64,000 nucleotides of DNA from Candidatus Poseidoniales archaeon (GTDB lineage Archaea > Thermoplasmatota > Poseidoniia > Poseidoniales > Poseidoniaceae). The notes beneath the pieces were generated by a model. That model did no database searches, was not told the DNA's origin, and saw nothing but the letters and a program-made list of their open reading frames with translations. Made by a program: the position numbers and the translations under genes. Positions 13,164-57,426 of the stretch are shown here, piece by piece. Location of the stretch: NCBI GenBank assembly GCA_038116375.1, contig JAYNUQ010000001.1, forward strand, positions 13,454 to 77,453. The letters run 5' to 3'. Position 1 is the stretch's first letter, and each line of letters begins with the position of its first letter.

Positions 13164-13248
13164 AGACGACGCTAACGCCTTGGCTTCTTGAAGAGTTTGA
13201 ACGCCAAACGGGGGTGGATTTGAAAGACTCCGCCTCCACCCGTTGACC

Positions 13249-27394: not shown

Positions 27395-27457
27395 GGTTCC
27401 CACACACTCCAATCACCATTTGAACCATGCGGTTCGGGGTCGGCATCCACCGAGCCG

Positions 27458-33208: not shown

Positions 33209-33396
33209 GAACTCACCGTCGGGAAAGGCTCCGCCTCGCTCTCTTTTCACTCTGCTCAGATTGCTTATGAGCATGATGGAACATTGTTCATACAAAACGT
33301 CGTTCCGCGTGGTTGTTTCCCTTGAAAAAATAGCCCGTGTGGAGCCGTTTCATCGGTGGATTCAAGTCCCTCCCGCGCTGGAGGTACGATGTTCAC

Positions 33397-34209: not shown

Positions 34210-34265
34210 CCGTTGGGGCAAACTTTGGGGTGAATGGCTAAATGATACGGGGTTGTAACAACCTT

Positions 34266-35327
34266 GTGAACCGACGCGCCCGCCAAGTTGCGTCCCATCG
34301 CCTGCGTGATGAGGAACGTGCTGTGAGCGAGGTGCTTGGCGTGGTGATGCTCCTCGCGATGGTCATCACCATCATGGGCGGTGTGTGGGTGTTCCTCAAC
34401 CCCTATCTTTCCGATTTTGAAGACAACACCAACTGGAATTCTGCAACGGGTCTCGCAGACCGCATCGAAGACCGTCTCGAGGTCGCTGGCAACGCTCCTG
34501 AAGGGACGGGCTTTCGCAACACCTTAGCCATCCAATCGACCGCCATTCGGTCGGTGCAAAACGTTGAGCATTGGACCATCAGTGCCGATTTAACCGACCG
34601 AGAACGCGTCCAGTTGCGTCAGGTCAACGACACGACGGTTGCTGTTTTGGCTGCCAATGAGACCGTACGCTCCATCTCTGTTGAATCGCCGGGCGTGTAT
34701 TTTGAAGACGAGGTCACGCCAAGCCATCTTGAGGTGTTCATCACCCACAATGCCAGTGCTGCACACTGGATGATCGTAACCGTTTACGGGGCAGATGATG
34801 AGCCGCTTCATCGCCACATCACGTGGACGCTTTCAGGGCTTCAGATCACCACATCGCTCGGCCAAGGAGAGCACCAAATTGTGCTGATGAACAACGCACG
34901 GGCGGAACGCTTCCCGAACCAAGCCTGGGAAGTCAGTGCCATGCCGTCGGTCGAATTTGACCGCATGGCGAACGACGAACTGCGGCTCTCCATTCTCCTG
35001 ACGGACGTGGTGTCGAACGGAAGCATTGGTTCGGGCAGCAACGTCGGCATGCAATTTGTGTCCCAAGGACCCATGACGTTGTTTACGGGACGTGCCTACA
35101 ACGTCAACTTCAACGTCTTCAACGCGCTTCACGACGTCATCACACCGCAATACCACAACAGCTGGCTCTCCGAATACACCGTCCAGCGCTCTTCGGGCAC
35201 CTTGGACACCTACATCGGGTTCTCGCCGTACGAACGAGCCAGCGGTGCAGACGGCTTTAGCGTCTCATCGCAGCAATTACCGCTCTACTTTGAGGTGGAC
35301 ATGCAACGGGTCGAGGTGAGTCGTTGA
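34266..35327 (+). CDS. Archaeal type IV pilin-like protein (class III signal peptide)
   Basis: RDEERA|VSEVLGVVMLLAMVITI cleavage pattern with a hydrophobic helix. Start uncertain (GTG 34266 or ATG 34242). Confidence 0.8.
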   Translation: MNRRARQVASHRLRDEERAVSEVLGVVMLLAMVITIMGGVWVFLNPYLSDFEDNTNWNSATGLADRIEDRLEVAGNAPEGTGFRNTLAIQSTAIRSVQNVEHWTISADLTDRERVQLRQVNDTTVAVLAANETVRSISVESPGVYFEDEVTPSHLEVFITHNASAAHWMIVTVYGADDEPLHRHITWTLSGLQITTSLGQGEHQIVLMNNARAERFPNQAWEVSAMPSVEFDRMANDELRLSILLTDVVSNGSIGSGSNVGMQFVSQGPMTLFTGRAYNVNFNVFNALHDVITPQYHNSWLSEYTVQRSSGTLDTYIGFSPYERASGADGFSVSSQQLPLYFEVDMQRVEVSR

Positions 35328-40582: not shown

Positions 40583-43500
40583 TCACTGTTGTGGTGGTTG
40601 CTGGTAGTTGGGGTCCGGGACCCATTGGTTGGAAGCCTGGTCCCAGAGCCACCCTGGATGCTGGGAGGCTGCAGGAGCAGCCTCTTGTGCAATCGGTGCG
40701 GCTTGAGCAGGTGCAGCCGTCTCTTGCTGCGGGATGGCAGGTGTCTGCTTCGCTTTGGCCCAGGCGTAGGGGTCTTCGTCTGCTCCTGAATCATCTCCGG
40801 TGAGTTCATCCTCATCGGGGAGTTCTTCGAATTCAATGAAGAAGAATGCACCGGCACCCAAAAGCACCAACACGGCCAGAACGATGAGCACAATCGTGAA
40901 CACGCCTGAACTTCCGTCGTCGCCGCTTGATACGACAATGGCGAACTCTGCGTTTTCGGTTTGGCCTGCGAACCTGAAAATTTGACCGTCCATTTCGAAG
41001 ATGACATCGGACTTCCCTTCAATTCCGCTCAATTGACCGGCCGTTAGATCCATGGCCCATGATCCATCGGAGAGCACCCGAGTGGAGTTCAGCTTGGCGT
41101 TCCCTTCTGCAAATCGAGCGATGACAAGACTGCCTGGCAAGCCCTCTCCTTGGAAGGTCGCAGGGTCGTCAACCGTGATGTCTCCGCTGTCGATGCGCTC
41201 CACAGTAAAGGCCACGGAGCGAACAAGGAAGTTCACCTTCAAGGAATAGGCCTTGGACTCTTGGTCATCTTGTGCGTAAACGACGACGCCGTTGAGTGAC
41301 CAGTCAGGAATGATGCTGGTGGTCTGCGCCATGTAGGACATCGGGTCGTAGGTGAGCACACCGAGCGGGGTGATGGTGATGAAGTCGTCATAGAAGTCGT
41401 CCTCCAACGTCTCATCGTCGTCATAAACGTAGAACTCCAAGTCGTTGCCGGGTGAGCCGGTACCGTCTGGGTCCGAGAAGAACTCGGCGAGGTCAAACGA
41501 AACTCCACCTCCACAGCGGTCAAAGGAGTTGGAATTTTCATCACAGAATATGGTCCATGTTCCGACCCAACCCGTTTCGTTGAATACGGGGTCAATGTTC
41601 TCGGCGTCCAGCGGATTGTTGATGGTCATGCGCCATACCGCCCACTCCGAATAATCATCTCCGTCGTAGGCACGAACGGCAACGGAGTACACGCTGTCGT
41701 GAACAAGGTCCGAGGTGTCCCATGTGGCCACCCATGAACCGTCGACGGCAAAGTTCGTAACGGGCAACGGGCCGTCGTTGAGCACGATACCGTTGGCGAG
41801 GTCGGTGATTTCAATCTCCACACGAGTGACGAAGCCACCGATGTCTCGAGCAACACCGATGATTTTCGTCTCCTCGGATGCTCGGACCGTATCACCGTCA
41901 ATACCACCCGAGGATTGGTCTTCTGCACCGATCCAAGAGAGTTGGAGGTTGGGCGGGACGTTGTCGTTGTTGATGGTGATGGTTCGGGTTTCAACCACAC
42001 ACTCATCCTGATTATCGATGCAGAAATCGCTGTCGGCAGCCCAGACGGTGACGGTGTATTCTCCCGAAGGAAGTTCAGCCACGTTCCATTCGTACGACCA
42101 CGAGGTTGAACCCTGCTGGAAGAACTGTTGCGTGGTTCCTGGACCTTCGATGTTGAACCAAATTTGTTTGATATCGCTGCCATAGGTCCCCTGGTAAGGG
42201 TCGGAAGCCGTTCCTTGGAAGAGCACCTTGCCGTTTTGGTGGACGCTGCCTTCGGTGGGAATGTCGACCAAGATGGTGGGGGCAACGAGGTTGAGTTTGT
42301 ACTGGCGCACTTCAACCGGCGAGTAGTCCAGACCGTCGTACGAACGGATGCGGAAGGTGATGTCGCCCTCACCCTCGGGGTGGGCTGCACCGTCCCATTC
42401 GTAGACCCAATCCTTGAACGGATGGTTCTCCATCGTGATGTCGCCGTTCGAGCCAGAAACATCGGAGGCGTAGAACCAATCCGATGAACCGGGTGGCTGA
42501 ATTTCGACACGCTTGATCAAACCAAACTGAGCCTGTTGGGCCGTGTTGTCGTTGGCATAGGGCCACTTCGCACCGTCCCAGGCCTGTCCGGTAATACGGA
42601 CGGTGGTTGCATAGGAATAGCCGTCGGGCTCGTTGACGCTCACACCGGGGCGGAGGTTTTCGAGGTTGATGATGTCGTCAATTGGTCCCGAAAGCACGTA
42701 TGAGAAGTCATCCCGGCCGCTTCCGAATTTGAAGGCTTCAACGCTGTAGAACGGTCGCTCACGGCCCGTGATGCAGTCGTTGTCGTCGCCGTCAACGAGC
42801 GTGTCCCCGTCGTTGTCAATACCATCGGCACAGGAATCTTCGTCCACCGTAATGGGTTGACCCGTTCCATCATTGGAGCCAGGAATGGCAGCGTTCTTGT
42901 CGCCCACGACATGGTTCCAATTGCGGTCCAGCAAGAAGTCGGACGGGAGCGAGACCTCCTGCGTAAATCCGAACGCATCGGTGGTCAGCTCGTAGAGCGG
43001 AAGGCCAGTGGCGTCTTTGATGACGACCGTTGCACCTTCGACGTTGGAGTTCTTGGCCTTCACCTGATAGCGAACGAGTTCACCTTCACGGACTTGGGAC
43101 CCCCAAGCCGTGTTTTGGTTTTGGACGTGAATCATCGTTGAGTCAAAGTTCTGGAGGTCTGCGTAGGAAAACACGGTGGCGTTTTCGACAAGTTCCAGAG
43201 CCAACGGCATGTTTGCAGGTGGCATCGAAACCGTGCCCGGAAGCTTGAGACATTCGTCCTGCACGAACGGACACTCAGCGCCGAGCCAGCGGATGTTGAC
43301 CGGGTAGAGTTCGTTGTTGCCGGGGGAAGGAATTTGTTCGGATTGAACCGTGACACGGGATTCTGTCACGTTGTACACTTGGGAAACACCGCTCCATGAG
43401 TTGCCTGAGAAATACGCAATTGAGCCGTACTTGTTCCCGTAGTTGTCGTCGTGAACGCTTACGTTCCCTGCAAAGCCTCCGGCTGAATCAGCGGTGTTGC

Positions 43501-44974
43501 CCTGAACGTTGACCAGAGAGCCCTTGGCTCGAATGATATCGCCGGTATTACCGGAGATGGTGTTGTCAACGATGGTTGCTGATGAGCGGAAGACGTGGAC
43601 GGCAGGACAGGCGAAGTCGCCACCGTACATCTGAGAGTTGCACGTTCCAGAATTGTTGGAGATGACGTTGTTGGCCAAATAGAGGCGAGCAGCCGTAGGA
43701 GCGGGGACTTGCCAACCCTGGTCTTGGTAGTGGTATTCACCGATGAGCACGGGTTCCTTGCCGGTGTCTTGGATGGTGTTGTTTTCAGCCACGACGTCAG
43801 AAGTACCGTATATCCACACGCCGTTCCAGCCGCCAATGGGTCCAATGGTGTTCTCGTGGAGTTCAACGATTGAACTTCGGATACCCACGCCTGAACCTTC
43901 TGCAGCGCCGCTGATGGTGTTGCGCTCAGCGTAGACCTTAGCACCGTCGTAGGCGGTCAGGCCAGCACCCTCTGCTGTGGTGATGATGTTGTTGTTCACT
44001 TCAAGCGTATGCTCGATGATTCCTGTGGTCTTCAGCGAGTTGGTGTCAACGGCGTTGCACTTTACCTCGATTTTTGAGTTGGTGAGGGAACCTGAACTTG
44101 ACTTCATCAAAATTCCGTAGCTGTTGTCTTTCACGTCCAAATTGTCCATGTCAATGTACGAGTCCTCGATGTAAATCACGGCACGACCGCCGCCTTGTTG
44201 ACCGCAGTCTGCATCAGCACCGGTGAAGGTGGAATCTTTGACTTCAAAGGTTGAAAGGATGCCTGCGCCAGCGGCGTAGGCACGCACGGCTGCCGCATCG
44301 TATCCTTGGCCGTCAATACCAAGCTCAAACGTGGATTCGGTCAGCAAGGGGGAGGCAAAATCAACGGCGATGACGTTCGAGGTGTTGATGTCGGTGAAGG
44401 AGAGACCTCGGGCCGTGGTGCTCGACCCGTCAAAGACCAAAGCGCCGTATTGCACGGCTTGCAACGATGAAACGTAGATGGGGTAGCCGTAAGCGTTCTC
44501 GAAGTGAGCGTAGTTGATGGAGGTGATGGCTTGGTCGATGGTGTCCCGAATGATCATGCCTGAACCACAAGCAGCATCGGGGTTGTTGAGAACGTTGCTG
44601 TTGTTGTTCAGGCAACGTCCGACCTTGTTGTAATCGGATGGGGTCGACCAGATGAATCGTGCTTGGGAAGAAGCAGAGCCGGGGCTTGCACCGCACGAAG
44701 CATCTCCGATGCAGATGGCGCCCTTGACGTCGATGAATTTGCCGTGCGGAATGTTGACCGTTGTACCCGCATTGACGATGAGTTTCGAACCTTCGGACAC
44801 TTCGATGTCGCCCTGGAGGTTCATCGTGCCGGACCATGTTTCTGTACCCGAAATGGTACCCTGTGTGGTTTCGTTCACGGCCATGGCGCTTGGAACGGAA
44901 ACCATGGCCAACATGAGGGACATCATGTAGAGCATGACCAGCGAGACGGATTTTGTACGGTTTCTTTGAGACAT
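40583..44974 (-). CDS. Large surface protein with a right-handed beta-helix, Ig-like domains and a TM anchor
   Basis: Signal peptide; repeated (I/V)..N.I..N beta-helix motifs; CADGIDNDGDTLVDGDDNDC metal-binding-like motif; Ig repeats (G.A.D...VEI...W...WD...Y.V.VRA.D); TM helix and Trp-rich tail; AGGTGA RBS. Confidence 0.85.
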   Translation of the reverse strand: MSQRNRTKSVSLVMLYMMSLMLAMVSVPSAMAVNETTQGTISGTETWSGTMNLQGDIEVSEGSKLIVNAGTTVNIPHGKFIDVKGAICIGDASCGASPGSASSQARFIWSTPSDYNKVGRCLNNNSNVLNNPDAACGSGMIIRDTIDQAITSINYAHFENAYGYPIYVSSLQAVQYGALVFDGSSTTARGLSFTDINTSNVIAVDFASPLLTESTFELGIDGQGYDAAAVRAYAAGAGILSTFEVKDSTFTGADADCGQQGGGRAVIYIEDSYIDMDNLDVKDNSYGILMKSSSGSLTNSKIEVKCNAVDTNSLKTTGIIEHTLEVNNNIITTAEGAGLTAYDGAKVYAERNTISGAAEGSGVGIRSSIVELHENTIGPIGGWNGVWIYGTSDVVAENNTIQDTGKEPVLIGEYHYQDQGWQVPAPTAARLYLANNVISNNSGTCNSQMYGGDFACPAVHVFRSSATIVDNTISGNTGDIIRAKGSLVNVQGNTADSAGGFAGNVSVHDDNYGNKYGSIAYFSGNSWSGVSQVYNVTESRVTVQSEQIPSPGNNELYPVNIRWLGAECPFVQDECLKLPGTVSMPPANMPLALELVENATVFSYADLQNFDSTMIHVQNQNTAWGSQVREGELVRYQVKAKNSNVEGATVVIKDATGLPLYELTTDAFGFTQEVSLPSDFLLDRNWNHVVGDKNAAIPGSNDGTGQPITVDEDSCADGIDNDGDTLVDGDDNDCITGRERPFYSVEAFKFGSGRDDFSYVLSGPIDDIINLENLRPGVSVNEPDGYSYATTVRITGQAWDGAKWPYANDNTAQQAQFGLIKRVEIQPPGSSDWFYASDVSGSNGDITMENHPFKDWVYEWDGAAHPEGEGDITFRIRSYDGLDYSPVEVRQYKLNLVAPTILVDIPTEGSVHQNGKVLFQGTASDPYQGTYGSDIKQIWFNIEGPGTTQQFFQQGSTSWSYEWNVAELPSGEYTVTVWAADSDFCIDNQDECVVETRTITINNDNVPPNLQLSWIGAEDQSSGGIDGDTVRASEETKIIGVARDIGGFVTRVEIEITDLANGIVLNDGPLPVTNFAVDGSWVATWDTSDLVHDSVYSVAVRAYDGDDYSEWAVWRMTINNPLDAENIDPVFNETGWVGTWTIFCDENSNSFDRCGGGVSFDLAEFFSDPDGTGSPGNDLEFYVYDDDETLEDDFYDDFITITPLGVLTYDPMSYMAQTTSIIPDWSLNGVVVYAQDDQESKAYSLKVNFLVRSVAFTVERIDSGDITVDDPATFQGEGLPGSLVIARFAEGNAKLNSTRVLSDGSWAMDLTAGQLSGIEGKSDVIFEMDGQIFRFAGQTENAEFAIVVSSGDDGSSGVFTIVLIVLAVLVLLGAGAFFFIEFEELPDEDELTGDDSGADEDPYAWAKAKQTPAIPQQETAAPAQAAPIAQEAAPAASQHPGWLWDQASNQWVPDPNYQQPPQQ

Positions 44975-45175
44975 CGGTGATTCACCTACTCTGTCCATGA
45001 ACGCCACGAATATAATACTGCGCCTCATTTGCCAAATTAAGAGTATCAACTACGGCTAAATGTATCACATAAAACCCCGAATAACGTCAATGAAATGCCG
45101 CATTCACGCCGTTTATATGCCGTTATCTGGAGTTTTTCGACAGGCGAAAACCCTGAGGAATTGAAAAAATGGGAT

Positions 45176-46384
45176 TCAACACGCCGAAATGAGTTGTGTT
45201 TCCTGATACCATGCCTCAGCGTTGAGCATCCCGTATCCGCCTCGAGCATCGTGCTCAGACACCCCGTCGATGCGGAGAGAATTCATCAGCGCCTCCTTGA
45301 CTTTCACGAGACAAGATGCGTTTCCACCCGACGTCGGTTTCAGCAGCGGATTGCCTTCGAGAATAAGGGCCAGTGCACCCGTAACGAACACGGTTGCATC
45401 CGAGGTTCCACTGCTGGAGTACCATCGGTTATCGTTCCCCGTGCTGATGATGAACTCCCCAGGTGCGACCACCTCGGGTTTGAGATGGGGCGACTCACGG
45501 GGCTCTCCGTTTCTGTCCAAGGGAGCACCAGAGGACGAATTGGCCCAGAGGGTCTTGCCTTGTGTTGTTGCCCCGACCGAGATCGCCAGCTGAACACTGC
45601 CGGGAGACGCAACATCACCATCATCGTCTGTTCCGTCATTACCTGCTGCTGCGATGACGTAGATGCCAGCATCGGTGGCCTGACGGGTGGCAGAAGAGGA
45701 ACCACCCTCTTGTGAATCTGCGTTCTCGCTGCCTCCGAGGGAAAGCGAGATGATATCCGCTTCGAACTCAAATTGGCACCATCGAATGGCGTCAGCAACG
45801 TTTGAATCCAATCCGGTGTTTTCACCGTCCCCGTTATCGCTCAGTGAGGCCACCATAGCAAACGTCACGCCTGGAGCAGCACCTTCCTGATGGTCGGTTG
45901 AAAGCAGCAACCCTGCCATGAGCGTTCCATGCGCCACCGCACCGTAATCCAGGGGTGCCCGCGAAGAGCCGACCAAATCCTTGAATTCAATTTCGCGACC
46001 ACCGAAGGCCTCGTGGGTTGCATCGATGCCCGTGTCGACCATGCACACACGAACGTCTTGCCCGGTAAGCCCCTCCTGTTGGAGTGTCCGGAGCTCCGAG
46101 TCTTCAAACGCCCATTCTGACTTGGGGACTTGGAATTCAACCACGATCCAATTGTTCTGCCAGAACAGCAGGCTGGCCGAAACGAGGAGGGCGAACACCA
46201 CCATGCCCGAAACGGTGAACGTTCTGCGCTTGGGTCTGACCACAGGCGTGACCTCTTGAGGAGCCCAACCCATGATTTCAGAGCGCCATTCGTTCTGGAA
46301 GCCAATCACGGTGGGATCCACAGCGGAGACGATGCTCCGGTCGGTAGGCTCAGGAAGGTATTCGACGTCACGAAGTCCCTTCAT
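45176..46384 (-). CDS. Membrane-anchored subtilisin-like (S8) serine peptidase
   Basis: Catalytic motifs VDTG, HGT and SGTS; oxyanion AAGN; KPEVVAPG; GYG near the C-terminus; single N-terminal TM helix. Confidence 0.92.
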   Translation of the reverse strand: MKGLRDVEYLPEPTDRSIVSAVDPTVIGFQNEWRSEIMGWAPQEVTPVVRPKRRTFTVSGMVVFALLVSASLLFWQNNWIVVEFQVPKSEWAFEDSELRTLQQEGLTGQDVRVCMVDTGIDATHEAFGGREIEFKDLVGSSRAPLDYGAVAHGTLMAGLLLSTDHQEGAAPGVTFAMVASLSDNGDGENTGLDSNVADAIRWCQFEFEADIISLSLGGSENADSQEGGSSSATRQATDAGIYVIAAAGNDGTDDDGDVASPGSVQLAISVGATTQGKTLWANSSSGAPLDRNGEPRESPHLKPEVVAPGEFIISTGNDNRWYSSSGTSDATVFVTGALALILEGNPLLKPTSGGNASCLVKVKEALMNSLRIDGVSEHDARGGYGMLNAEAWYQETQLISAC

Positions 46385-46448
46385 GGCTTACACTACCTCC
46401 TTCACGCACTCATGAAACCTTGTTTGAAAATCCACTAAAAAGTGAACA

Positions 46449-49400
46449 TCAGAACTTGGTTCCGCTTCGGCTACGGGCGGTTTTGACACCGCCGTACACG
46501 ACCAATATGGCCAAGAGGGCAATCAACAGGGTCATCCACGCCGATTCACCGTCGGCCGAACTCTGGATGTTGTACTCCAGACTGAAGTCGCCTGCCTCGG
46601 GTATCTCCTCAACGCTCTCGGACTCGGCGCCTGGAACTTCCATACGGTAGGCAAAGCGCTTGTTTCCGAAGGTGAAGGAAAGACCCTCAAAGACGGCAAC
46701 ACCTTCTCCTCCTGCTGGAACAGAAATCGTTTGCGAAAGCTCTGCACCGTTTGGTGGCGTGAGGTACACGATCACCGAAGGAGCGTCCAACAGACCGTCG
46801 TTGGTCACGGGGACTCGGACGGCACCGACTTGGTCAGCAATCAAATCCGACTCTGTGGCAATTCTGGCCTGGTCGAGACCGAGTTTGATGGTCGCCTTCT
46901 GAATGCTGACAACGACTTCTTCCCGGTCCATGTTTTCACTCTCGCTGTTGATGTACACGGTCAAGTCGAAGTCCTGGCCGTCGGTGAACGAGGCTGGAGC
47001 GAAGACCGTGAACTGCTGACTTCGGGTTTCGTCCTTTGCCAGCGTGAGGGTTGAGGTCATCGGTGTGACCGACCAGTCCGCTGGGATGCCGCTTTGAAGC
47101 AGTTCGATGGTAAAGGTGTCTTGCCCGTTTCCGTCGTTGGTCAAATCAAAGGAGAATTGGCGTTCGACAAGGGCTGACATACCGAGTTCTTCCGTGGCCT
47201 CCGATACGGTGAAGCCGTAGGTTTGCGGAATGAAGACCTTGACAGATGCCTGAGAGGATTCACCAAGATCGGTCTGCAAGCGCATGGTCATGCGGTGTCC
47301 GTTCTCCAACTTCCATGCATCAGCGACGTCCGGTAGCGTGAGTTGCACCTTGATCGTCTCTGAAAGCGCAGCAGCGGTGTTTGCATCACCGATACCCAGC
47401 GATACGTCAATGCTGTCTTCGTAGGCCTCACTTGTTTCGTTGTAGAACTGAACCGTCCACAATTCCGAATCTTGGGCAAGACCCATTTCACCGGAGACCG
47501 AAAACACGTCCATCAACTCCGTGCCGTTGTACACGACATCGAAATCAAAGGTAATGGTGGAGTATACCGATTCGTTGGTTGAGGAAACGATGGCTTCCAA
47601 TTCAGAATCTCCAGCGTTCAACACCGTGGCATCGACCACAGAAGCCTCGTTGAAGGTGATGTCCAAAGCCGAGTTCACCCTGCGGTTGAATTGCAACGTA
47701 GCAGCGATGGTTGAATCAGCGGATACCGTGGTGGTCTGCCCACCGTAATATTCCATCTCAAGTTCCGTAGCGTGCTGAACCGTCATGAATTCGCTGTCGA
47801 ATGAAACGCTGCCCTCGGGGAAGAGCGTGCGCAATTCGCCGTTAGCGGGAACCGCCATCATCCACGACATCCCGTCGAAGGTCACTTCGAGGTCAACAAC
47901 ATCCTGCACCATATCGGCGCCGCTGTCGCCGGAACCGGCGTGGTGGTCGTTTTGTTCAATGTCGGTCCAAGCCGTAGCGAGATTGACATAACCTCCAAGC
48001 GCCATGACCATCGAGATGTTGCCGCCGTTTGAGACCGAAGCGTCGAGAAGACCGATGGCGACGCCGCCACCGTTCGGTCCAGGGTTGGATTGGGTAATCA
48101 CCACAACCCACTCACCGGGTTCAACACTTGTGGACCACTCGAGGGTGCTTTCGTTCATGGCTCCGTTGACGTGAACGGGGTTGCGTTCAACGCCTGCGAC
48201 GGGATAAAGAACGATGTTTGCCCCAACCAACCGGGCAGCATCAAGCTGGTCGGTGATGGTTCCGAAGACCTCAACGAGACCGGCACTGACCTCAATATCG
48301 GTCGAATCTGGACTGTCGTGGACCGTGTATCCGCTTTGGTTTTCCGTTTCGTAGTAGACGGTTTCGTATCCCTCTTTCTCAACGGTGACGTTGTACACAT
48401 CCCGGATGGGCACGAAGACACGCCATACGCCCTCGTCGTCGGTCGTGACCGTTGCAGAGAATTCAGAATTGTTGTCGCCTTCAACGGTGACGGTCATTTC
48501 GGGGAGCCCCTCACCGAGGTTGGGGACGCTGTCGTTGTTCAAGTCCCAGAACACCTTGCCGCCAATTTCAACTTCAAGGGTCGCATAGACAGCGTCCAAC
48601 ACCAAGCTGTTGTCCACAGCGTCGTCCGTGTTGAAGGGCGAATCGCTCGTGTCCATGAACCAAGATTTGGTTCCGATGGTACGATTGAGGTAGAAACTCC
48701 ATTCTCCGGGCATCAACAGCTCAGAGGAATTCCCGTCCTCGTTGGTTCGCTCAAAGGTGACGTTGCCGAGTCCCTCGTGGCTCACGGCCGTGACCGTCAT
48801 GTCGCTCAAAGGCGATTCGGTGACGGCTTCCATGAGTTGCATCGAGACATCAACGCTTACCTGGGTCGCCAAGTCCAACTCCAAACGGTCTGAGCCTGCC
48901 TGAACCACGACCGGCTGACGCAGGGTCTCCGTGTGGTCGCCGTTGGTAAACGGTGCAACGATGATGAGCCAGTCACCCGCAGGCACGTAGGCCGCAAAGG
49001 TGCCGTTTTCATCAGAACCGATGTTGAACCACTGGTCCTTCTCCTCGTTGTAGAGGAGGAAATCGTTTGCGATACCGTCGCCGGTGGTGTTGACCAAGGT
49101 TCCGTTCACCAAGTAGGTGTTCTTGAGCGGAACCTCGAGCGGTTCATCGATGGAGTCCAAACCTATGCGGAGGGCATCAAAGAACTGCTCGCCAACAAGG
49201 TCGTAATCCGTGGCGTTTTCGTTGTCGGCGGTGGTTCGGTTGAACACGATGTCATAGCCACCAGGAGTAAGGCCTACGGTGATGATTCCCGCTTCGCTGT
49301 AGTCTTCAGCCGTGAAGTACAGGCTCTCCTGGTTTTCGTCGATCGGCTTCAGCGTGAATGCCGGTGTGGCCATCGTTCCGTTCTCAAACGTCCCGTCTTC

Positions 49401-52400
49401 CGCCGAATTCAGGTAAACATGCATCGTAACCGCAATCGGTTCGGGGTTGGCAATGAGTTCCATCGTGGACACAAAGGTGGTTGCTGAGTGGTTGACAACA
49501 AGGTCCTGTCCACCGCTGATGTTCAATCGCTCATCGCTGACGGAGAGGTCCCAAGTGCCGTCGGTCAAGTCGAAGACGAATTCACCCATTTCGGTGGACG
49601 TGGTTCGCCACATCAGACCGTCCTCGTTGGTCGCCACAATCTCAGGAGCGACCCAGTTTGGAAGGGTCGAATCCCATCGAGTATCGTTTTCGTAGAGGTG
49701 GACGATGCCGTTGACGGTCGTGGTTGGCTCGAGGTAAAGGGCGCCGAGGTCCAAGTCCTCGCCGGTCTCAACCGATACCAGTTGGCCGAGTCCACGGTTG
49801 ATGATGACACTCTCGGTGGTCATGTGGTAGGTGAACCCAGAAGGCACACGGACGGAGAAGAAGCCGGTTACGTTGGTGACAGAAGAGAACTCGAGGTTGC
49901 CCGAAACGAAGTTCACGGTCAAGGCCGAGGCGGCTTCTGTGGTTTCTTCGCGGTTCTCCTCAGGAGTCATTTCGTCCCACTGGTCGTATTCCTCGATGGT
50001 GATGCCGGGGTAGGACCGCATGCTTCCGTTGATGTACGCTGCCTTAGCGTAGGTCACGTCAGTCTGAAGTTCCTCAGTGCCGGGCTCAAGTTCGATTTGG
50101 TCAAACAGCACGAATTCTGGGTTGATGTCGTCTCGGATGTTCCAAACACCGAACAAAAGTTCAGCATAGATTTCACCGTTTTCGTCGCTGGTGACGTTGA
50201 TCGGTTCAAGCACATCAACTTCGTTTTGGAAGGTGATGGTTCGGTTGGAAACATCGAAGAGCGGCTCTTGGGTGAGCGGGTCAATTGGCGAAACAAGCGT
50301 CAACGTCAAGTCAGCCGTATCCGGAACGTTGAGGGCCAACGTGATGTTGGTAATGTCATCGTTCACAAAGGCCGTTTCGTTGTAGTCGTACCAGCCGTCG
50401 TTATCGACGTCGCCTCGGTAGTAGTACTCACCCGGTGCGACGGGGCCGTAGGAGAAGTTTCCTTCCTCGTCGGTCGTGATCATAACGGCAAACTCATCGC
50501 CGAGTTCAACGTCAACGAATTCAATGGTTTGGTTTGGCATGGCATCACCGTGCATGTCCTTCAGCGTGTCCTTGAAGATGGCACCTGGCATGGTCATGGC
50601 AACATCGTACGTTGGGTCAATACCAATTTCAACGGGGTCCGGCAGGAGGACTTCCTTGCCGTTGGCCAGTTGTGCGATCATGTTGTAGGTTCCAGGCAAG
50701 AGACCGGTCTTGTAGAACGAACCGGGTTCAACCATTGGACCTGAGAAGGTACCAACGCCGATGAACATGCCCGTGCCGTTGAACGTACCCGTTCCTTCAA
50801 ACGAGCCTGCACCTTCAATGGTTTCACCTTGACCGGCTTCGGCGTCACCGTAGGTTCGGCTCAAGGTGGAGGTGCCCTCGGAAGTAAACGTACCAAAGGC
50901 ATCAACCGTTCCCTCCAGGCGGTAGGTTGGGGTTTCGCCGCTATCATCAATGAGGCAGAAGGTTTCGTTCGCTGGCATCACGGGATTGGATTCGTTGTCC
51001 GACTCGCATGCTGCGACCTCGGCGGGTTCAACCCACGAGGCTTCAAGCACACCAAATCCGGACCACGTACCGTTGGCAAAGAAGGTACGTGCATCGCCGA
51101 TGTCTCGTGTGAACGTTCCGATGAAGTTGCTGGCGAGTGCGATGCCCTCGCTTTCGAACGTACCGTTCTCCGTCAACGTGGCTTCACCCGTTCCTTGGAG
51201 GATGCGAGATTCTTCGGAGGTGAACGAACCGCTCGTGGTTTCGACGGTGTAGTTGTCTGTCATCGACCAAATGTTTCGGAGAATGAAACTGGTTTCGGCA
51301 ATGGGCTCACCGTTGAAGGCTTCATCGCCGGCCCATGAAACGGTACCGGAAACACCGCTGCTTTGGACGGCGATGTCAAGCGTATTGTCCATGTCGACCA
51401 TTCGGTTGGCCTCGTCTGCGGTGACGTTGAGCAGGGATTCACCCAGCCAGGTCATGTTAGCGACTTGGCCCAAAATGGCCGTGAGCTCGTTGACTTGTCG
51501 GTCGGTGTTGGTCTCGGTCAGAATGTCACTGAGGCGCTCGCCGTAGGAACCGTCTCGGACCTTGTCGCGAGCAGAACTGGCGTCGAAATCACCCGCAAAG
51601 GCGGAAACACGAATCTTTCCGGCTGGAGCCAGGAAATTGTAGTGGCCTTCGTCGTCGGCGTCAACAAAGCCGATGGGGACCCAGTAGGTGTCCTCGTCCA
51701 AGTCTTCGCCGCTTTCTCCAGAGAAGGCGTCGCGCTCAATCAGCAAGCGAACGCCCGGTAGGCCTTCGCCGTTGTCGCTCATGGTTACTTGGCCGGTCAA
51801 CTCTGCACCAGGGTAGTACTTCAGAATCTTCACCAGGGTGTTGGTGGATTGGATCTGGTCTTCTGGGGCTTCGCTGTACCAGTTGGCGATAACGAAGTGA
51901 TTCATCATGGCACCAGGGAGCGGAAGGGCGTTGGTCATGATGGTTCCAGGGGAACCGGATTGACCGAAGTGTTGTGACGGTTGCGGGTTGCTTGAGCCGG
52001 CGTTCAAACCGAGCGTGGATGCACCGTATCCAACATAGGTTCGGGCAACCATGGTGTCGAAGAACGCAGGGTTGTGGTCAACACGAACATCCTCGATCTG
52101 CAACGGGTCAATGTCTGCACCGGCCTGCTGGTTGAGGAAATCCTTCTGCATGGCCTCGTCCACTTCTTCTCGGGTCATCTCGTCTTGGAAATCACCACGA
52201 ACCGTTTCGTAGACTTCATCCATGTAGGTGGTGATGTCTTGTCCAGCGAGGATGGTGGGTGCGCCAAAGATACCCATGGGTTGACCACGGTTGTAGTTGG
52301 CATCAGCGGTATAGCGCCCTGCACGGGGGTACAATCGGTCGTCGATGGCAAAGTATCGGATTTCGTGGTCTCGGCTGATGGTCTCTCCAGGAGCACCTTC

Positions 52401-55400
52401 GTAGTCTTGAACCTTGTAGAGTCCCTCGAGGTTGATGAGGTCGTTGTAGAGGTCGTGAATGGTATGGTCGGGATTTGCATCAAATGCGGCCGTGAGAAGT
52501 TGCGTTACCATGGCCAAACGTGCATTCATTCGGTGAATGGAGGTTGAAACCGACAGGTACTCATCAAGCAGGTCATCGGTGTACCAATACTCGCCAAAGA
52601 TGGTGTGGGTGCGTCCTTCGATCGTTTCTTCCGAGGTTCGAACGTTGTTGTTGAACGTGATATCGGCTTGGTCCATGGAACTCCATGCATCGCCAACACA
52701 CGAGGTGGAAACAGCGTCCGTACACGGGATGATTTCGTTGTTCTTCCAAATCTTGTAGACCTTTGTGCTGTCGTCGAAGATGCCTGCGTCGTGCGTGTAG
52801 CCCTCGGCCATTACAACGTCGCGGTTGGTTTTGACAACGTTAAACGAGCGCTCTTTGATGAAATCGATCATGGATTCATCAAACGTCGTCTCCATGGTGT
52901 GGAATTCCTCGTATTGCTCGGCGGTCAAGTACTTCTTCACGGTGTTTTCGAAAGGCACGGTAAAGGTGTGGTCGTCGCCTTCGGTCGCATAGGCCCGGTC
53001 GCCTTCGGCCAACTGCCAGATGAACATGGCCGTCAAATCCTCTTGGCTTCTGGCCAAGAGCATGTTTCCAGTTGCAGGGATACCCGATTGGAAGTTGTCG
53101 GAGACCGAGGGGTGCTCACCCGTGCTCAACGCTTGGAACCCGTAGTCCCACCATGATACGAACGCGGGTTTGTCGGAATACGCCATCTCGGCATCTTGAT
53201 TCGCCAACCAGTCGTAGGCTGCGTTCCAACCGTTGTCGTTGAATGAGGAACCAAAGCTACCAAGATACCAACGTCCATCGTAAGCGTCGCTGTCCAGAAT
53301 AGAGAAACCAAGACCGTCAAAGCGTAGGATGTCAGGAACGATGTTGTAAATGCGTTCGTCGATCTCAGCTTCTTGGTTGGACGTTCCTGGGATGGCGGAG
53401 TCCAAACCGTACGTGGCTTGCTGACCGAAAATCATGATCATGACGAGGAACACCGCAGAGAATTGCGGTGTACGCCAAACGGCCTTTCGTGCTCCTGCGA
53501 TACGGTCACCGGGCGTCCTGATGCCGAATTTCTTCCATGAACGGACCAGTCCGCTCCAGTCAGCCCACTTCCAGAATCCAACGATACCAGCAGCACCGAG
53601 AACGGCCATGATGGGCGTAGCGTTGAACATGAAACGAGCGGCGTTCCAAGCCATGAAGGTCGCTGCAAACACCCACACACCGAACACCAAGGCGGTGCCG
53701 TTTCGGTGGCGAAGACCTCGCCAAAGCAGGCCACCACCCATGATGAGAGCCAGCAGGAAGGTGATGGGACCAAAGGATGCAAAGAGTTGGGCACGGTTTG
53801 GTGCGTTTGCTTCAGCAACCGTTCCGAAAATCTTGGTCTTGGTGAAGTAGCCGCTACCGGTGAACAACACGTCCCAAGCGTTCGAAAGTTCAAGCGTTTT
53901 GAGAACGAAGAGGATGGCGAAGAAGACCGCAGCAGCTGCACCGAGTGTACCGAGGACCAACAGCCAGGGTTTGTCTCGGAACCCGGTGGTCACGAAGGCG
54001 ATGGCCAAGGTGAAACCGAAGATGAACAAGAACGGTTGAAGTCCTGTTGAATCAAACACGAGGTTGAATTGTGGATGTGCGTAAAACGGCAGCGCCATCA
54101 AGAACGTGGTCGTCAGCATCACGAGGAACATGACGCTCAATGTCGTAGAATCACGGCGACGGAACATGTTCAATGCGACCTGCAAAGCATAGGCCAAGAA
54201 CAGAATCGATGGACCAACGACGAACCCTTTCCAACCCAACGCGACAATACCGAAGGAAACGCCAGCGAGCACAGCGTTGGCCATGGCCGCCTGACGGTGG
54301 TTGGCGACGTCACCGAAGGCTCGGACGAAGGACATCGGGTGTGCCGATGTTGTCTTCGTGATGCGAGCCGATCCTGAGTACTTCACGGCACGCAGCCAAT
54401 ACATGAACCCAAGCGAGATGAAGAGCATGACGAAAGCGTCGTGGTCGGCCAGAGCCCAGGTGGAGTGCGTGACGTGCGCTGGCATGAAAGCGATGAGCCA
54501 AGCAGCCAGAACACCAGCACCTTTGCCGAAATGGTCCTTGGCGATGGCGGCGATGGGGAACACGGTGAGCGCACCGTAAACCGCAGGCAGGGCGAGCATG
54601 CTCCACCAGACAGCATCATCAGGATTACCGATGAACGGTTCGAGAAGCATGGCGCCAACGGCCATCGACCACGAGAAGAGCGGCGGACGAGGGTTGATGC
54701 CACCGATGGGATAGAATCGGTCGGCGTCAACCACAAGGTGAGCGTTGTTGGCCAGAATGTAGTCGACGACTCGCTTCATGTACCACGGGTCAGAACCACC
54801 CGTCATGTCCCAGTTGCCGGTTCCAAAGGCGTTCATCGATGGCACGGCGTACCATTGAACACGAATGGCAAGACCGACCAAAAAGGCCAGAGCCACCATC
54901 ATACCGGCGCCGTGAGCCCGAAGGAACTGACGCGCCTGGGATGGCTCATGTTCGCCAAGGTTGGCCCAGCCACCGTATTTTTCGTGGTTGCCGATGGTGT
55001 AGATTCCGACGCCCAAAAAGAACGTGAAGCCCAGCCAAATCAAGGCACCCCAGGTGCCGTCGAGGTCTTCGTTGTACCAAATACCTGCTTCAAACCAAGC
55101 AGCGACCTGATACAGAGCCCACATGGAACCGACGAGCATGGCACGGGTGTACCAGCGCTCAGCCACCATGCCAGCGACGATGAGTGCGACGACCCCCGTG
55201 AGGAACGCACTCCAGTAGCCGATGTAGCCGTGGTAGCCCTCTTCGGTCGTGATACCCAACTGGTCGATCACGTCGACGGAGTTGAAGTGGTAAATGGAGC
55301 CTGCAAAGGCAAGCACCCAAACGCCAAGGGCGACCATGAGCGGCAGGGCGTCTCGGTTGAATCCGTCCTTGTTGCCGAGGAAGGAAAACCAACCTTCCTC

Positions 55401-56003
55401 TCCGGCAGGGTTCAAGACGCCTCGAGCGAGGACACCTGCGAGCATGCCCGCAGCGGTGAACATCGTCAGGTAGGCAAAGAACACGTAGGCTGTGGCCTGT
55501 CGCTCAAGGTTCATGGTCGAGACCAATTGGCCGCTTTCCATGGTGTATTGAGACGGGAGCGCAGCGAACGCATCACCTGCTGCGGCCATGGCGAACCAAA
55601 AGCCAACGGCGGAGAACGCCATGGTGGTCATCCACTCGTGGCGTCCTCGGAGGTTCAAGTTTGAACCAACGACGAGAATGACGGCAAACATCAACGCTGC
55701 AACAGCGTCGACATCTGCGAACATGTAGAGCCCCTCTGCACCGACAAGTGCCAAGGCCAACACGCTGAGGGAAACGGTGGAAGTGGAAATGTCGGGTCGA
55801 GTTGCCTGAACGATGCTCGGCACCAAGGCCAGCATGGATGCGATGGCGACGACGAGCATCGGCATCATGTTGTTCAACGTCAAGTCGTATTCAATGCCTA
55901 CGACTCTGGTGGTGGCAAGAGCGAGCAGCACGGCCAAGGGCGCAAGCAGCAACCCCAACACGGCACTAGGCTGTTCCGCCTTCGTTTCCATTTCTTCTTC
56001 CAT
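46449..56003 (-). CDS. aglB: Giant oligosaccharyltransferase AglB (STT3) with an extra N-terminal TM domain and a C-terminal carboxypeptidase-regulatory/Ig-like array
   Basis: SDPWY (~aa 404), DHD (~520), TVAE (~728), WWDYG (~951, nt 53139-53153) and DNFQ; then ~1750 aa of T(T/S)D..G.(F/Y)...PG.(Y/W) repeats and a terminal TM helix. Confidence 0.92.
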   Translation of the reverse strand: MEEEMETKAEQPSAVLGLLLAPLAVLLALATTRVVGIEYDLTLNNMMPMLVVAIASMLALVPSIVQATRPDISTSTVSLSVLALALVGAEGLYMFADVDAVAALMFAVILVVGSNLNLRGRHEWMTTMAFSAVGFWFAMAAAGDAFAALPSQYTMESGQLVSTMNLERQATAYVFFAYLTMFTAAGMLAGVLARGVLNPAGEEGWFSFLGNKDGFNRDALPLMVALGVWVLAFAGSIYHFNSVDVIDQLGITTEEGYHGYIGYWSAFLTGVVALIVAGMVAERWYTRAMLVGSMWALYQVAAWFEAGIWYNEDLDGTWGALIWLGFTFFLGVGIYTIGNHEKYGGWANLGEHEPSQARQFLRAHGAGMMVALAFLVGLAIRVQWYAVPSMNAFGTGNWDMTGGSDPWYMKRVVDYILANNAHLVVDADRFYPIGGINPRPPLFSWSMAVGAMLLEPFIGNPDDAVWWSMLALPAVYGALTVFPIAAIAKDHFGKGAGVLAAWLIAFMPAHVTHSTWALADHDAFVMLFISLGFMYWLRAVKYSGSARITKTTSAHPMSFVRAFGDVANHRQAAMANAVLAGVSFGIVALGWKGFVVGPSILFLAYALQVALNMFRRRDSTTLSVMFLVMLTTTFLMALPFYAHPQFNLVFDSTGLQPFLFIFGFTLAIAFVTTGFRDKPWLLVLGTLGAAAAVFFAILFVLKTLELSNAWDVLFTGSGYFTKTKIFGTVAEANAPNRAQLFASFGPITFLLALIMGGGLLWRGLRHRNGTALVFGVWVFAATFMAWNAARFMFNATPIMAVLGAAGIVGFWKWADWSGLVRSWKKFGIRTPGDRIAGARKAVWRTPQFSAVFLVMIMIFGQQATYGLDSAIPGTSNQEAEIDERIYNIVPDILRFDGLGFSILDSDAYDGRWYLGSFGSSFNDNGWNAAYDWLANQDAEMAYSDKPAFVSWWDYGFQALSTGEHPSVSDNFQSGIPATGNMLLARSQEDLTAMFIWQLAEGDRAYATEGDDHTFTVPFENTVKKYLTAEQYEEFHTMETTFDESMIDFIKERSFNVVKTNRDVVMAEGYTHDAGIFDDSTKVYKIWKNNEIIPCTDAVSTSCVGDAWSSMDQADITFNNNVRTSEETIEGRTHTIFGEYWYTDDLLDEYLSVSTSIHRMNARLAMVTQLLTAAFDANPDHTIHDLYNDLINLEGLYKVQDYEGAPGETISRDHEIRYFAIDDRLYPRAGRYTADANYNRGQPMGIFGAPTILAGQDITTYMDEVYETVRGDFQDEMTREEVDEAMQKDFLNQQAGADIDPLQIEDVRVDHNPAFFDTMVARTYVGYGASTLGLNAGSSNPQPSQHFGQSGSPGTIMTNALPLPGAMMNHFVIANWYSEAPEDQIQSTNTLVKILKYYPGAELTGQVTMSDNGEGLPGVRLLIERDAFSGESGEDLDEDTYWVPIGFVDADDEGHYNFLAPAGKIRVSAFAGDFDASSARDKVRDGSYGERLSDILTETNTDRQVNELTAILGQVANMTWLGESLLNVTADEANRMVDMDNTLDIAVQSSGVSGTVSWAGDEAFNGEPIAETSFILRNIWSMTDNYTVETTSGSFTSEESRILQGTGEATLTENGTFESEGIALASNFIGTFTRDIGDARTFFANGTWSGFGVLEASWVEPAEVAACESDNESNPVMPANETFCLIDDSGETPTYRLEGTVDAFGTFTSEGTSTLSRTYGDAEAGQGETIEGAGSFEGTGTFNGTGMFIGVGTFSGPMVEPGSFYKTGLLPGTYNMIAQLANGKEVLLPDPVEIGIDPTYDVAMTMPGAIFKDTLKDMHGDAMPNQTIEFVDVELGDEFAVMITTDEEGNFSYGPVAPGEYYYRGDVDNDGWYDYNETAFVNDDITNITLALNVPDTADLTLTLVSPIDPLTQEPLFDVSNRTITFQNEVDVLEPINVTSDENGEIYAELLFGVWNIRDDINPEFVLFDQIELEPGTEELQTDVTYAKAAYINGSMRSYPGITIEEYDQWDEMTPEENREETTEAASALTVNFVSGNLEFSSVTNVTGFFSVRVPSGFTYHMTTESVIINRGLGQLVSVETGEDLDLGALYLEPTTTVNGIVHLYENDTRWDSTLPNWVAPEIVATNEDGLMWRTTSTEMGEFVFDLTDGTWDLSVSDERLNISGGQDLVVNHSATTFVSTMELIANPEPIAVTMHVYLNSAEDGTFENGTMATPAFTLKPIDENQESLYFTAEDYSEAGIITVGLTPGGYDIVFNRTTADNENATDYDLVGEQFFDALRIGLDSIDEPLEVPLKNTYLVNGTLVNTTGDGIANDFLLYNEEKDQWFNIGSDENGTFAAYVPAGDWLIIVAPFTNGDHTETLRQPVVVQAGSDRLELDLATQVSVDVSMQLMEAVTESPLSDMTVTAVSHEGLGNVTFERTNEDGNSSELLMPGEWSFYLNRTIGTKSWFMDTSDSPFNTDDAVDNSLVLDAVYATLEVEIGGKVFWDLNNDSVPNLGEGLPEMTVTVEGDNNSEFSATVTTDDEGVWRVFVPIRDVYNVTVEKEGYETVYYETENQSGYTVHDSPDSTDIEVSAGLVEVFGTITDQLDAARLVGANIVLYPVAGVERNPVHVNGAMNESTLEWSTSVEPGEWVVVITQSNPGPNGGGVAIGLLDASVSNGGNISMVMALGGYVNLATAWTDIEQNDHHAGSGDSGADMVQDVVDLEVTFDGMSWMMAVPANGELRTLFPEGSVSFDSEFMTVQHATELEMEYYGGQTTTVSADSTIAATLQFNRRVNSALDITFNEASVVDATVLNAGDSELEAIVSSTNESVYSTITFDFDVVYNGTELMDVFSVSGEMGLAQDSELWTVQFYNETSEAYEDSIDVSLGIGDANTAAALSETIKVQLTLPDVADAWKLENGHRMTMRLQTDLGESSQASVKVFIPQTYGFTVSEATEELGMSALVERQFSFDLTNDGNGQDTFTIELLQSGIPADWSVTPMTSTLTLAKDETRSQQFTVFAPASFTDGQDFDLTVYINSESENMDREEVVVSIQKATIKLGLDQARIATESDLIADQVGAVRVPVTNDGLLDAPSVIVYLTPPNGAELSQTISVPAGGEGVAVFEGLSFTFGNKRFAYRMEVPGAESESVEEIPEAGDFSLEYNIQSSADGESAWMTLLIALLAILVVYGGVKTARSRSGTKF

Positions 56004-56151: not shown

Positions 56152-57426
56152 TCAGTCGATGGCGCGATGGGCAATATCCCTTCGGAAATGGCCACCTTGG
56201 AGGTCGATTTCATCCATCAAAGCGTAGGCTTTTTTCTGGGTTTGCTGAAGGTCGGCACCGAGAGCCGTACACGAAAGAACCCGTCCACCCGATGCGATGA
56301 AATCACCGCCTTCACCCAGAGACACACCGGCAAAATTCACCCAAGATGCCCCGTAGGAGGTTTTGGAAAGAAGCGTTTCCAATCCGTGAATTGGGCGCCC
56401 TTTGACGGGCGAGGCAGGGTAGCCCTCTGAGGCCAACACCACCGTGACGGCCGAACCTTCGTGCAGTTCCAGTTCGACGTCGTCGAGGGTGTCGGTTGCT
56501 GCACCGTTGAGAAGGGAGAACATGTCGGTTTTGATGAGCGGAAGAGTGACTTGGCACTCCGGGTCGCCAAACCGTACGTTGAATTCAACGACGTAAGGGT
56601 CGTCGTGGTCGTCGATCATCAACCCGATGAACAACACACCGCGATAGGGGACGGCCTGCTGTGAAAGATGCTGGTGCATGGGCTCGACAATGCGCTCGAC
56701 GATTTTCATGTGAACCGAAGAGGAGACCACGGGTGCTGGACAGTAGGCCCCCATGCCTCCCGTGTTTGGACCTTCATCGCCGTCAAAGGCTCGCTTGTGA
56801 TCTTGACTGGCCGGCAAGGTGCGGTAGGCCGTCCCGTCCATCACGACGAGCATGCTCGCCTCCTCGCCGGGCAAAAAGGCCTCAAGCAACACAAATCCAT
56901 CCGTCTCGATGGAGGATTGGATGAACGACAGCGCCTCGGCTCTGTTTGAAGTGACCACCACACCTTTTCCACCGGCCAAGACGTCTCGTTTGACAACCCA
57001 AGGCTCACCAGCATAGGCATCGAGGGCCGCTTCGAGGTCCGATTGAGCATCAAGCCGCTGGTAGGCTGCGGTCGGTACACCCGCCGTTTCCATGGTCTCT
57101 TTGGCATGCAGTTTGGATCCCTCCAGGTGGGCCAACGCAGCAACGGGTCCGAAGCAAGGAACCCCAGCGGTTTGGCAGGCATCAGCCAATCCATCGCACA
57201 GGGGGGCCTCGGGGCCCACAACCACCAGACCTGCACCAACCTCGACAACGAGGGCGAGTAAGGATTCGACGTCCGAAGCACCGGTGTGATTGGTGGCGAT
57301 TTGAGCGGTACCTGCATTCCCAGGGACGCAGTGCAAAGCGGCCACATGAGGAGAACGGTGAAGCGCAAGACACAGCGCATGTTCACGCCCTCCACCGCCA
57401 ACAACGACGACCGTTGTTCCATCCAT
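56152..57426 (-). CDS. purD: Phosphoribosylamine--glycine ligase
   Basis: GGGGREHAL, PGNAG, VGPEAPL, LEGSK, AGGKGV, QDHKRAFDGDEGPNTGGMGAY, EFNVRFGDPE and GGRVL. Confidence 0.98.
   Translation of the reverse strand: MDGTTVVVVGGGGREHALCLALHRSPHVAALHCVPGNAGTAQIATNHTGASDVESLLALVVEVGAGLVVVGPEAPLCDGLADACQTAGVPCFGPVAALAHLEGSKLHAKETMETAGVPTAAYQRLDAQSDLEAALDAYAGEPWVVKRDVLAGGKGVVVTSNRAEALSFIQSSIETDGFVLLEAFLPGEEASMLVVMDGTAYRTLPASQDHKRAFDGDEGPNTGGMGAYCPAPVVSSSVHMKIVERIVEPMHQHLSQQAVPYRGVLFIGLMIDDHDDPYVVEFNVRFGDPECQVTLPLIKTDMFSLLNGAATDTLDDVELELHEGSAVTVVLASEGYPASPVKGRPIHGLETLLSKTSYGASWVNFAGVSLGEGGDFIASGGRVLSCTALGADLQQTQKKAYALMDEIDLQGGHFRRDIAHRAID

Follow-up and report, generated by a model that had tools for sequence, protein, structure and literature searches.

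A giant, doubly anchored AglB oligosaccharyltransferase conserved across the archaeal order Poseidoniales

Why does an archaeal cell carry its N-glycosylation enzyme on a chain of 3184 amino acids (aa)? The question is raised by aglB, a gene in the 64,000-nucleotide (nt) stretch of Candidatus Poseidoniales archaeon DNA analysed here (the window), where it occupies positions 46449-56003 of the minus strand. AglB moves a lipid-linked glycan onto the Asn of N-x-S/T sequons. Poseidoniales are among the most abundant surface-ocean archaea; to our knowledge no culture has yet allowed a look at their cell envelope, and their sole oligosaccharyltransferase (OST) exceeds all characterised AglB, PglB and STT3 proteins that we know of three- to fourfold in size. 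The gene is complete, a single uninterrupted frame plus stop that opens with an ATG three codons past the upstream stop, and no second STT3 match was found in the genome (88% complete). Our analyses revealed a conserved layout consisting of a ten-helix transmembrane (TM) N-terminal module, a 13-TM STT3 domain, an AglB domain split by an insertion, a long-beta unit, some 14 beta-sandwich domains and a TM anchor. A sequence-only reading of the window had described an AglB fused to an extra membrane domain and to a doubly anchored Ig-like array, and this anatomy was borne out. Judged from its sequence, the protein belongs to a known enzyme family, in an oversized form and with one membrane module that has no known kin.

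The same reading had named a chimeric join among the observations that would overturn it, and no such join was found. In a first survey of 41 relatives, a single-contig genome (G039) already carried a frame of 3,210 aa. STT3 matches were present in 117 of 121 genomes of the same class, and 77 of the 99 matched genomes of the same order (Poseidoniales, or Marine Group II-like (MGII-like); the present genome counted) have a frame of 3,006-3,324 aa. Fifteen full-length homologues from the order are colinear with the window protein at 33-62% identity in BLAST. In addition, near-identical contigs from a different sample cover 46038-52124 and 52665-55147 and thereby span the junctions between N-terminal module and STT3 domain and between core and insertion, with no indels reported across four runs from four studies (contig matching); none of the 16 runs listed as containing the gene is an RNA run. 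An assembly chimera or fused gene call, in which two or three genes were joined by error, would be in line with the many 400-450-aa 'partial' pieces of aglB in public databases. These fragments, however, end at contig breaks, and they are so numerous because contig ends often fall in the best conserved segments. Together with the order-wide frame and the independent contigs, this leaves the chimera with next to no probability. For practical purposes it is excluded, and the gene is real and conserved. Many Poseidoniales entries labelled 'hypothetical protein, partial' (395-450 aa) are N-terminal aglB pieces cut at the conserved catalytic loop. Database entries from close relatives carry the names 'Candidatus Poseidoniales archaeon' and 'Stt3', which marks the organism as a member of Marine Group II.

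Purifying selection acts along the whole protein. Compared with the closest relative (90% identical), each region had a pN much lower than its pS and a dN/dS of about 0.04-0.11, values that are rough as synonymous sites are near saturation. Within the order, the core and aa 1200-1450 are the best conserved parts; the long-beta unit ranks between them and the array, which stands at 0.3-0.45 and has few gaps.

The catalytic core of GT-C fold is intact. All motifs on which the sequence-only reading had built its assignment were located in the frame (SDPWY at 404, DHD at 520, TVAE at 728, WWDYG at 951 and DNFQ at 969). The STT3/AglB transmembrane domain (aa 356-880; 53364-54938, minus strand) carries D405, D520-H521-D522 and T728/E731, which we take to be the first Asp of external loop 1 (EL1), the second, D-x-D/H-type motif and the TIXE/SVSE-type Glu motif of EL5, respectively. 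Pfam STT3 (PF02516) matched aa 376-665 with 53.2 bits (cut-off 24.5). The adjoining extracellular core unit (aa 881-1000; 53004-53363, minus strand) gave a weak AglB_core-like match and holds WWDYG (951-955; nt 53139-53153) and, 14 residues past it, D969-N970-F971-Q972. The closest solved relative by sequence is AglB-L of Archaeoglobus fulgidus, in which D405 aligns opposite the GGNDPWY segment, WWDYG opposite WWDYG and DNFQ opposite the NPFQ segment; in OSTs, a DK or MI motif forms the Ser/Thr pocket. Across 56 sequences, G403, D405, T728, E731 and W951-G955 are invariant (56/56), and D520, H521, D522, D969, N970 and Q972 are kept in at least 90%. For aa 1-1040, an AlphaFold model from 56 sequences had a mean predicted local distance difference test (pLDDT) score of 86.3 and a predicted template-modelling (pTM) score of 0.84. 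Its residues 368-998 superposed on A. fulgidus AglB (3waj_A) with a Z of 31.6 in a VIA comparison (root-mean-square deviation (rmsd) 3.6, 486 aligned), the core on human STT3B (6s7t_A) with 30.9 and on PglB (5ogl_A) with 21.0, and Foldseek likewise ranked AglB, STT3 and PglB on top (7e9s_A, E 3.6e-15).

Ahead of this core lie aa 1-355 (54939-56003, minus strand), in line with the extra stretch of about 370 aa of TM helices that had been noticed before. The model shows ten confident helices, from 14-35 through 316-339, before STT3 TM1 (356-383), with pLDDT mostly at 80-95. This N-terminal module was present in 45 of 47 genomes of the order, always within the large frame, and in none of 13 sister-family genomes. 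When 1.84 billion representative proteins were searched with a profile of the module, 99 matched, ten of them AglBs of 3,146-3,228 aa that begin with it and the rest fragments, and the module was found in no other architecture there. A word-based search among shorter proteins gave 76 matches, all of them close Poseidoniales-like pieces of at least 41% identity, and in the ESM Atlas the top score of 0.83 led to unnamed clusters. Comparison by hhalign of the module with the STT3 transmembrane domain, and of its two halves with each other, stayed below 1% probability. More than 20 prenyl synthases matched the module part of the model in VIA with Z 7-8.3, led by 3ipi_A (Z 8.3, rmsd 4.9, 180 aligned, model residues 18-241) and accompanied by a UbiA homologue (4tq3_A, Z 7.7), all within what the tool rates as helical-bundle background. 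UbiA and trans-isoprenyl diphosphate synthases have conserved Asp-rich metal- or diphosphate-binding motifs; no Asp is invariant or nearly so in the module alignment of 36 sequences. What is invariant there is G134, E282, W323 and F328, with E123 and R194 also conserved, and the model puts a polar cluster of E123, R194-G195 and E282 at cytoplasmic helix ends. By these searches and the model, we infer a membrane module without known kin that would pack beside the STT3 membrane domain. A role in lipid-carrier handling or partner docking is our best guess, to be taken as a lead and not as a finding.

Some related AglBs show N-terminal variation of their own. Two AglBs of 3,401-3,527 aa from one family of the order (f2; L019 and L020) have an Asp-rich insertion of about 290 aa between predicted helices 5 and 6, which fits an N-in topology as this loop is predicted to face outward. 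A 2,611-aa AglB from another class (f12; L035) has an N-terminal extension of about 230 aa before its first catalytic motif, without BLAST similarity to the Poseidoniales module.

Behind WWDYG, the extracellular part of the enzyme is split by an alpha/beta insertion (aa ~1001-1190; 52434-53003, minus strand; modelled with pLDDT 83-94). It is the least conserved part of the enzyme region within the order and has no BLAST counterpart outside it, where homology spans query residues ~365-1040 and 1213-1570 and skips 1040-1212. The peripheral units of the AglB C-terminal domain follow (aa ~1191-1545; 51369-52433, minus strand) and are conserved phylum-wide: residues 1213-1570 matched most of 25 homologues from outside the order, and identity within it was 0.57-0.74. 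A second AlphaFold model (aa 1041-2240, 50 sequences, mean pLDDT 86.7, pTM 0.55) placed aa 1189-1544 (model residues 149-504) on residues 513-868 of 3waj_A with a VIA Z of 8.7. The repeat array of about 1750 aa that had been seen to begin near aa 1400 thus needs a new boundary: aa ~1000-1545 are the enzyme's C-terminal domain plus the insertion, and the array proper runs from ~1546 to 3145. Its repeats are those of the beta-sandwich fold and not of sequence, as a BLAST of aa 1001-3184 against itself returned no internal repeat, so that the array did not arise by recent tandem duplication.

The array proper opens with a long-beta-strand unit (aa ~1546-1805; 50589-51368, minus strand) that contains a G-T-F-rich stretch. 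At aa 1593-1754 the model has very long beta strands of up to 43 residues. It is followed by transthyretin/CnaB/Ig-like sandwiches (aa ~1806-3145; 46569-50588, minus strand), for which we estimate about 14 domains at some 96 residues each. Four successive ones were modelled at aa 1806-2190 (VIA Z 8-10.6), the others come from length and hidden Markov model matches. The best Foldseek matches of the modelled array part were Gram-positive pilins and adhesins (E down to 1e-13), and the fold matches listed for this multi-domain model of aa 1041-2240 did not include OST accessory subunits. Pfam CarboxypepD_reg was found at aa 2497-2553 and in 31 of 34 relatives from the order, together with weak SdrD_B and NOMO1-like matches in AglB. 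The NEW3/CARDB-like ends that had been suspected are faint in the window protein itself (aa 2915-3034; FixG_C E 7e-4, choice_anch_T below cut-off) and clearer among relatives, where aa 2241-3184 of 34 sequences from the order matched NPCBM_assoc (NEW3) in 11, CARDB in 10 and FixG_C in 8. Further landmarks named before were all located, namely DVDNDG at 1865, DLNND at 2487, a Gly-rich stretch at 1737 and, near the C-terminus, a hydrophobic helix at ~3155-3173, and the Asp-rich loops at 1865 and 2487 are kept in the order consensus.

The chain closes with the TM anchor and a short basic tail (aa 3146-3184; 46452-46568, minus strand). Hydropathy places the helix 11 residues from the C-terminus, in agreement with the doubly anchored layout first proposed, and all long forms sampled have this anchor. 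The tail (aa 3174-3184; 46452-46484, minus strand) ends in Phe, as KF, RF, PF, AF or SF, in 34/34 complete sequences of the order compared with 1/25 others; other large window proteins do not end in a Phe-type tail. No PGF-type motif was found at the AglB C-terminus, and the 88%-complete genome had no Exosortase_EpsH match above cut-off that would point to an archaeosortase (17.3 compared with 25.7 bits).

How widely is this form distributed? The architecture had been presented as if singular; instead it is order-wide, and its C-terminal part phylum-wide, as emerged from the length survey across Thermoplasmatota that had been called for. The sister families of the class gave 18 matches, all but one of them in frames of 2,292-2,382 aa. 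The other classes of the phylum contributed 91 matched genomes out of 110, and 40 of these 91 had frames of at least 1,880 aa, several on single contigs. Twenty-five loci from outside the order were fetched so as to represent the different lengths. Each of the 22 long forms among them (17 from other classes and five from the sister order) has a final TM helix that stops 4-18 residues short of the C-terminus, whereas the three short forms (1,118-1,427 aa) do without it. Four of the long proteins showed STT3 plus several CarboxypepD_reg domains in Pfam, with a terminal CARDB in two of the four. Thermoplasmatota as a phylum thus have the long, twice-anchored ectodomain as a trait; the N-terminal module, the insertion at aa 1001-1190 and the terminal Phe are specific to this order. 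Fusion or fission of a separate array gene was considered and set aside: at the three short-form loci examined, no adjacent stand-alone array-plus-anchor gene was present.

The ectodomain itself is probably glycosylated. That it is rich in sequons had been noted before, and the density is indeed about twice that expected, with many positions conserved. Residues 1546-3150 contain 35 sequons compared with a shuffle mean of 16.0 ± 3.6 (0/2000 shuffles reach 35), and the post-core ectodomains of 55 homologues contain 2019 compared with 813 expected and 879 for the reversed control motif. Positions such as 1526, 1670, 1742, 2208, 2440 and 2855 are common to at least 29 of 34 sequences of the order, and aa 1000-1430 hold none (3.1 expected). 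The whole protein has only four cysteines; C1666 and C1683 are invariant (34/34) and bracket a short loop in the long-beta unit (nt 50955-51008) with an M-P motif and two sequons, at 1670 (33/34) and 1679 (23/34). The ectodomain is strongly acidic (Asp+Glu 17%, Lys+Arg 3.7%).

Taken together, these observations suggest that the protein is probably a single functional AglB in the oversized form usual for its lineage, with a stalk that is itself glycosylated, anchored at both ends and a component of the cell surface. The functions of the extensions are inferred from sequence and models. The even number of helices in the N-terminal module and the distribution of basic loops suggest an N-in topology that leaves that of STT3 unaltered, with catalytic site and array outside and the basic tail inside, so that an ectodomain of about 1600 aa, tethered at both ends, would loop over the membrane. 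Its sequons would be glycosylated by the protein's own active site (in cis) or by a neighbouring one (in trans). With its Asp-rich, calcium-type loops, the array could stand on the cell surface as a stiff and acidic arch coated with glycans, and this arch could also space or present substrates near the active site. We favour the structural role over the substrate-holding one: the distal part of the array is long and acidic, and in sequon density it equals the most sequon-rich of the secreted proteins nearby, such as the 1945-aa neighbour. The N-terminal module might sit beside the STT3 membrane domain and offer its cytoplasm-facing cluster of E123, R194 and E282 to a lipid carrier or a partner. 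The earlier suggestion that the enzyme could itself be an envelope component fits the conserved sequon enrichment to this extent, whereas its proposal of a single-chain OST complex found no homology, as no OST accessory-subunit family was matched in Pfam at E <= 0.1.

Several observations weigh against this reading. Shorter frames occur in 22 of the 99 genomes of the order. Five of these were looked into: the apparent split in G044 (locus L024) into frames of 1603 and 1646 aa coincides with a run of N and is therefore no evidence of a broken gene, and in G032, G140, G090 and G100 the match coordinates lie within about 1.8 kb of a contig end. The NCBIfam model TIGR04154 (archaeal STT3, archaeosortase A system-associated) scored 161.3 bits over aa 368-989 and missed its curated cut-off of 450, which marks the core as divergent. 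The dN/dS values are rough, as said above. Moreover, about 50 of the 91 matched genomes outside the class have forms of 870-1650 aa without the anchor, and sister lineages have neither the N-terminal module nor the insertion, so that the extensions cannot be needed for catalysis as such.

Three other explanations bear on the extensions. By analogy with the eukaryotic enzyme, array and anchor might do the job of ribophorins and OST48: they would retain nascent substrates at the active site, or chaperone them there, instead of forming a surface structure. The geometry is alike, with extracellular beta-rich domains held by one C-terminal TM helix next to STT3 (in eukaryotic OST, beta-rich domains on the non-cytoplasmic side are held by single C-terminal helices), and conservation is higher in the unit beside the enzyme (aa 1546-1800) than farther out in the array. 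However, OST-subunit families (ribophorin I/II, OST48, OST3/6) were absent both from the six Pfam families matched at E <= 0.1 over the whole protein and from the 18 that were listed when aa 2241-3184 of 34 relatives were scanned. Sandwiches of adhesins and pilins, generic in kind, gave the best fold matches, and the three short-form loci examined have no array-plus-anchor gene next to aglB. We also know of no OST accessory subunit that approaches an array of about 1600 aa, and we consider this analogy unlikely to hold.

The chain could also be a precursor that is cut, perhaps by a neighbouring protease, to free a C-terminally anchored surface glycoprotein from an AglB of normal size. A candidate protease exists in the 402-aa S8 subtilase encoded 64 nt downstream (45176-46384, minus strand; Pfam Peptidase_S8 E 2.7e-34), which directly follows aglB in 15/15 loci of the order. 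Yet its translation has no N-terminal hydrophobic signal, making it probably cytoplasmic, none of the 25 loci from outside the order has an S8 neighbour within the fetched flanks of its AglB, giant forms included, and no conserved linker or cleavage motif was seen in an alignment that is colinear with few gaps. Processing of this kind is improbable. Most speculative of all is a model in which the N-terminal module is a lipid-carrier device, for example the missing flippase or scramblase that acts on the dolichol-linked glycan, or a site where dolichol phosphate is recycled to supply the STT3 active site, and the self-glycosylated arch a glycan canopy. One polypeptide would then deliver the substrate, transfer the glycan and be the main product, an appealing scheme to which we give a very small chance. 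Our preferred reading remains the oversized AglB with a glycosylated stalk of its own.

The gene neighbourhood is conserved as well. The order purD-aglB-S8 subtilase is kept in 15/15 loci (L014-L027 and L033), with purD upstream (56152-57426, minus strand; Pfam GARS domains). A piece of the 1488-aa beta-helix/Big-domain protein encoded at 40583-45049 (minus strand) follows the subtilase in 8 of the 15 loci, whose flanks are short. Beyond it, the window encodes an 841-aa protein with an N-terminal HTH, a STAND/AAA ATPase and TPR repeats (38036-40561, minus strand) and two adjacent genes with N-terminal DUF7289 matches of 26.1 and 19.6 bits, below the cut-off of 27 (34242-37558, plus strand), possibly for archaeal pilin-like proteins. 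Large or secreted-looking proteins at 21986-33295 (minus strand), 2034-4451 and 13243-15477 (both plus strand) gave no or only weak Pfam families. Three of them are rich in sequons, a 1945-aa protein (32 compared with 14.7 expected), an 805-aa protein (18 compared with 8.4) and a 744-aa protein (9 compared with 3.6). By their sequences, the sequon-rich neighbours are likely glycoprotein substrates.

In full-text searches of the literature, no description of oversized AglBs was found, and AglB phylogeny surveys may remark on lengths. The passages on AglB in PMC5155288, PMC3750248, PMC10354927 and PMC11407970 mention the protein without its size. Passages of PMC9723583, a metatranscriptome paper on MGII, place an oligosaccharyltransferase gene among the transcripts enriched in an active MGIIb genus and do not remark on size.

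The protein described here offers a concrete candidate for how Poseidoniales cells build or organise their surface, within a phylum that includes wall-less acidophiles. It also provides a case, open to testing, in which an enzyme probably serves as its own substrate and, across lineages with or without the N-terminal module and with or without the array, a natural experiment on the accessory parts of OST.

Compared with known systems, the closest counterpart is A. fulgidus AglB-L (PDB 3WAJ, 7E9S). Both have the 13-TM GT-C fold and an extracellular C-terminal domain, as reflected in the Z scores of core and peripheral units, and both have the acidic EL1 motif, a TIXE-type motif and WWDYG. The solved chain, however, has 875 residues, which served here as the check on a range of roughly 600-1000 aa for characterised AglB, PglB and STT3 proteins, and it lacks the 10-TM N-terminal module, the insertion of about 190 aa after WWDYG, the array and the C-terminal anchor. 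The long AglBs of other Thermoplasmatota (1,880-2,760 aa; for example in G177, G214 and G248) and of the sister order (about 2,290-2,380 aa) are nearer in plan, sharing the STT3 core, the peripheral module, CarboxypepD_reg-type sandwiches, often a CARDB end, and the anchor, but they have neither the N-terminal module nor the insertion at 1001-1190, and their ectodomain is about 600 aa shorter. Eukaryotic OST shares the STT3 catalytic fold, as the match to human STT3B indicates; there, ribophorin I/II and OST48 are separate polypeptides, to which no homology was detected here.

For the array, the likeness is to the calcium-stiffened Ig-like/CnaB arrays of bacterial adhesins and pilins (B. anthracis TIE 6fwv, SdrD, the ice-binding adhesin 4p99) and to eukaryotic NOMO, with tandem sandwiches and Asp-rich loops in common. 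Those are stand-alone surface proteins, whereas the Poseidoniales array shares its chain with an enzyme, has a tether at each end and shows no sequence repeat. Mycobacterial AftD and EmbB likewise combine a GT-C glycosyltransferase with a large extracytoplasmic domain, which in their case consists of carbohydrate-binding modules, and they superposed on the core (6wbx_A, Z 13.0; 7bvf_A, Z 11.0). They differ in substrates and ectodomain folds and have no second membrane anchor, in contrast to the giant AglB of Poseidoniales, whose ectodomain would return to the membrane at its far end.

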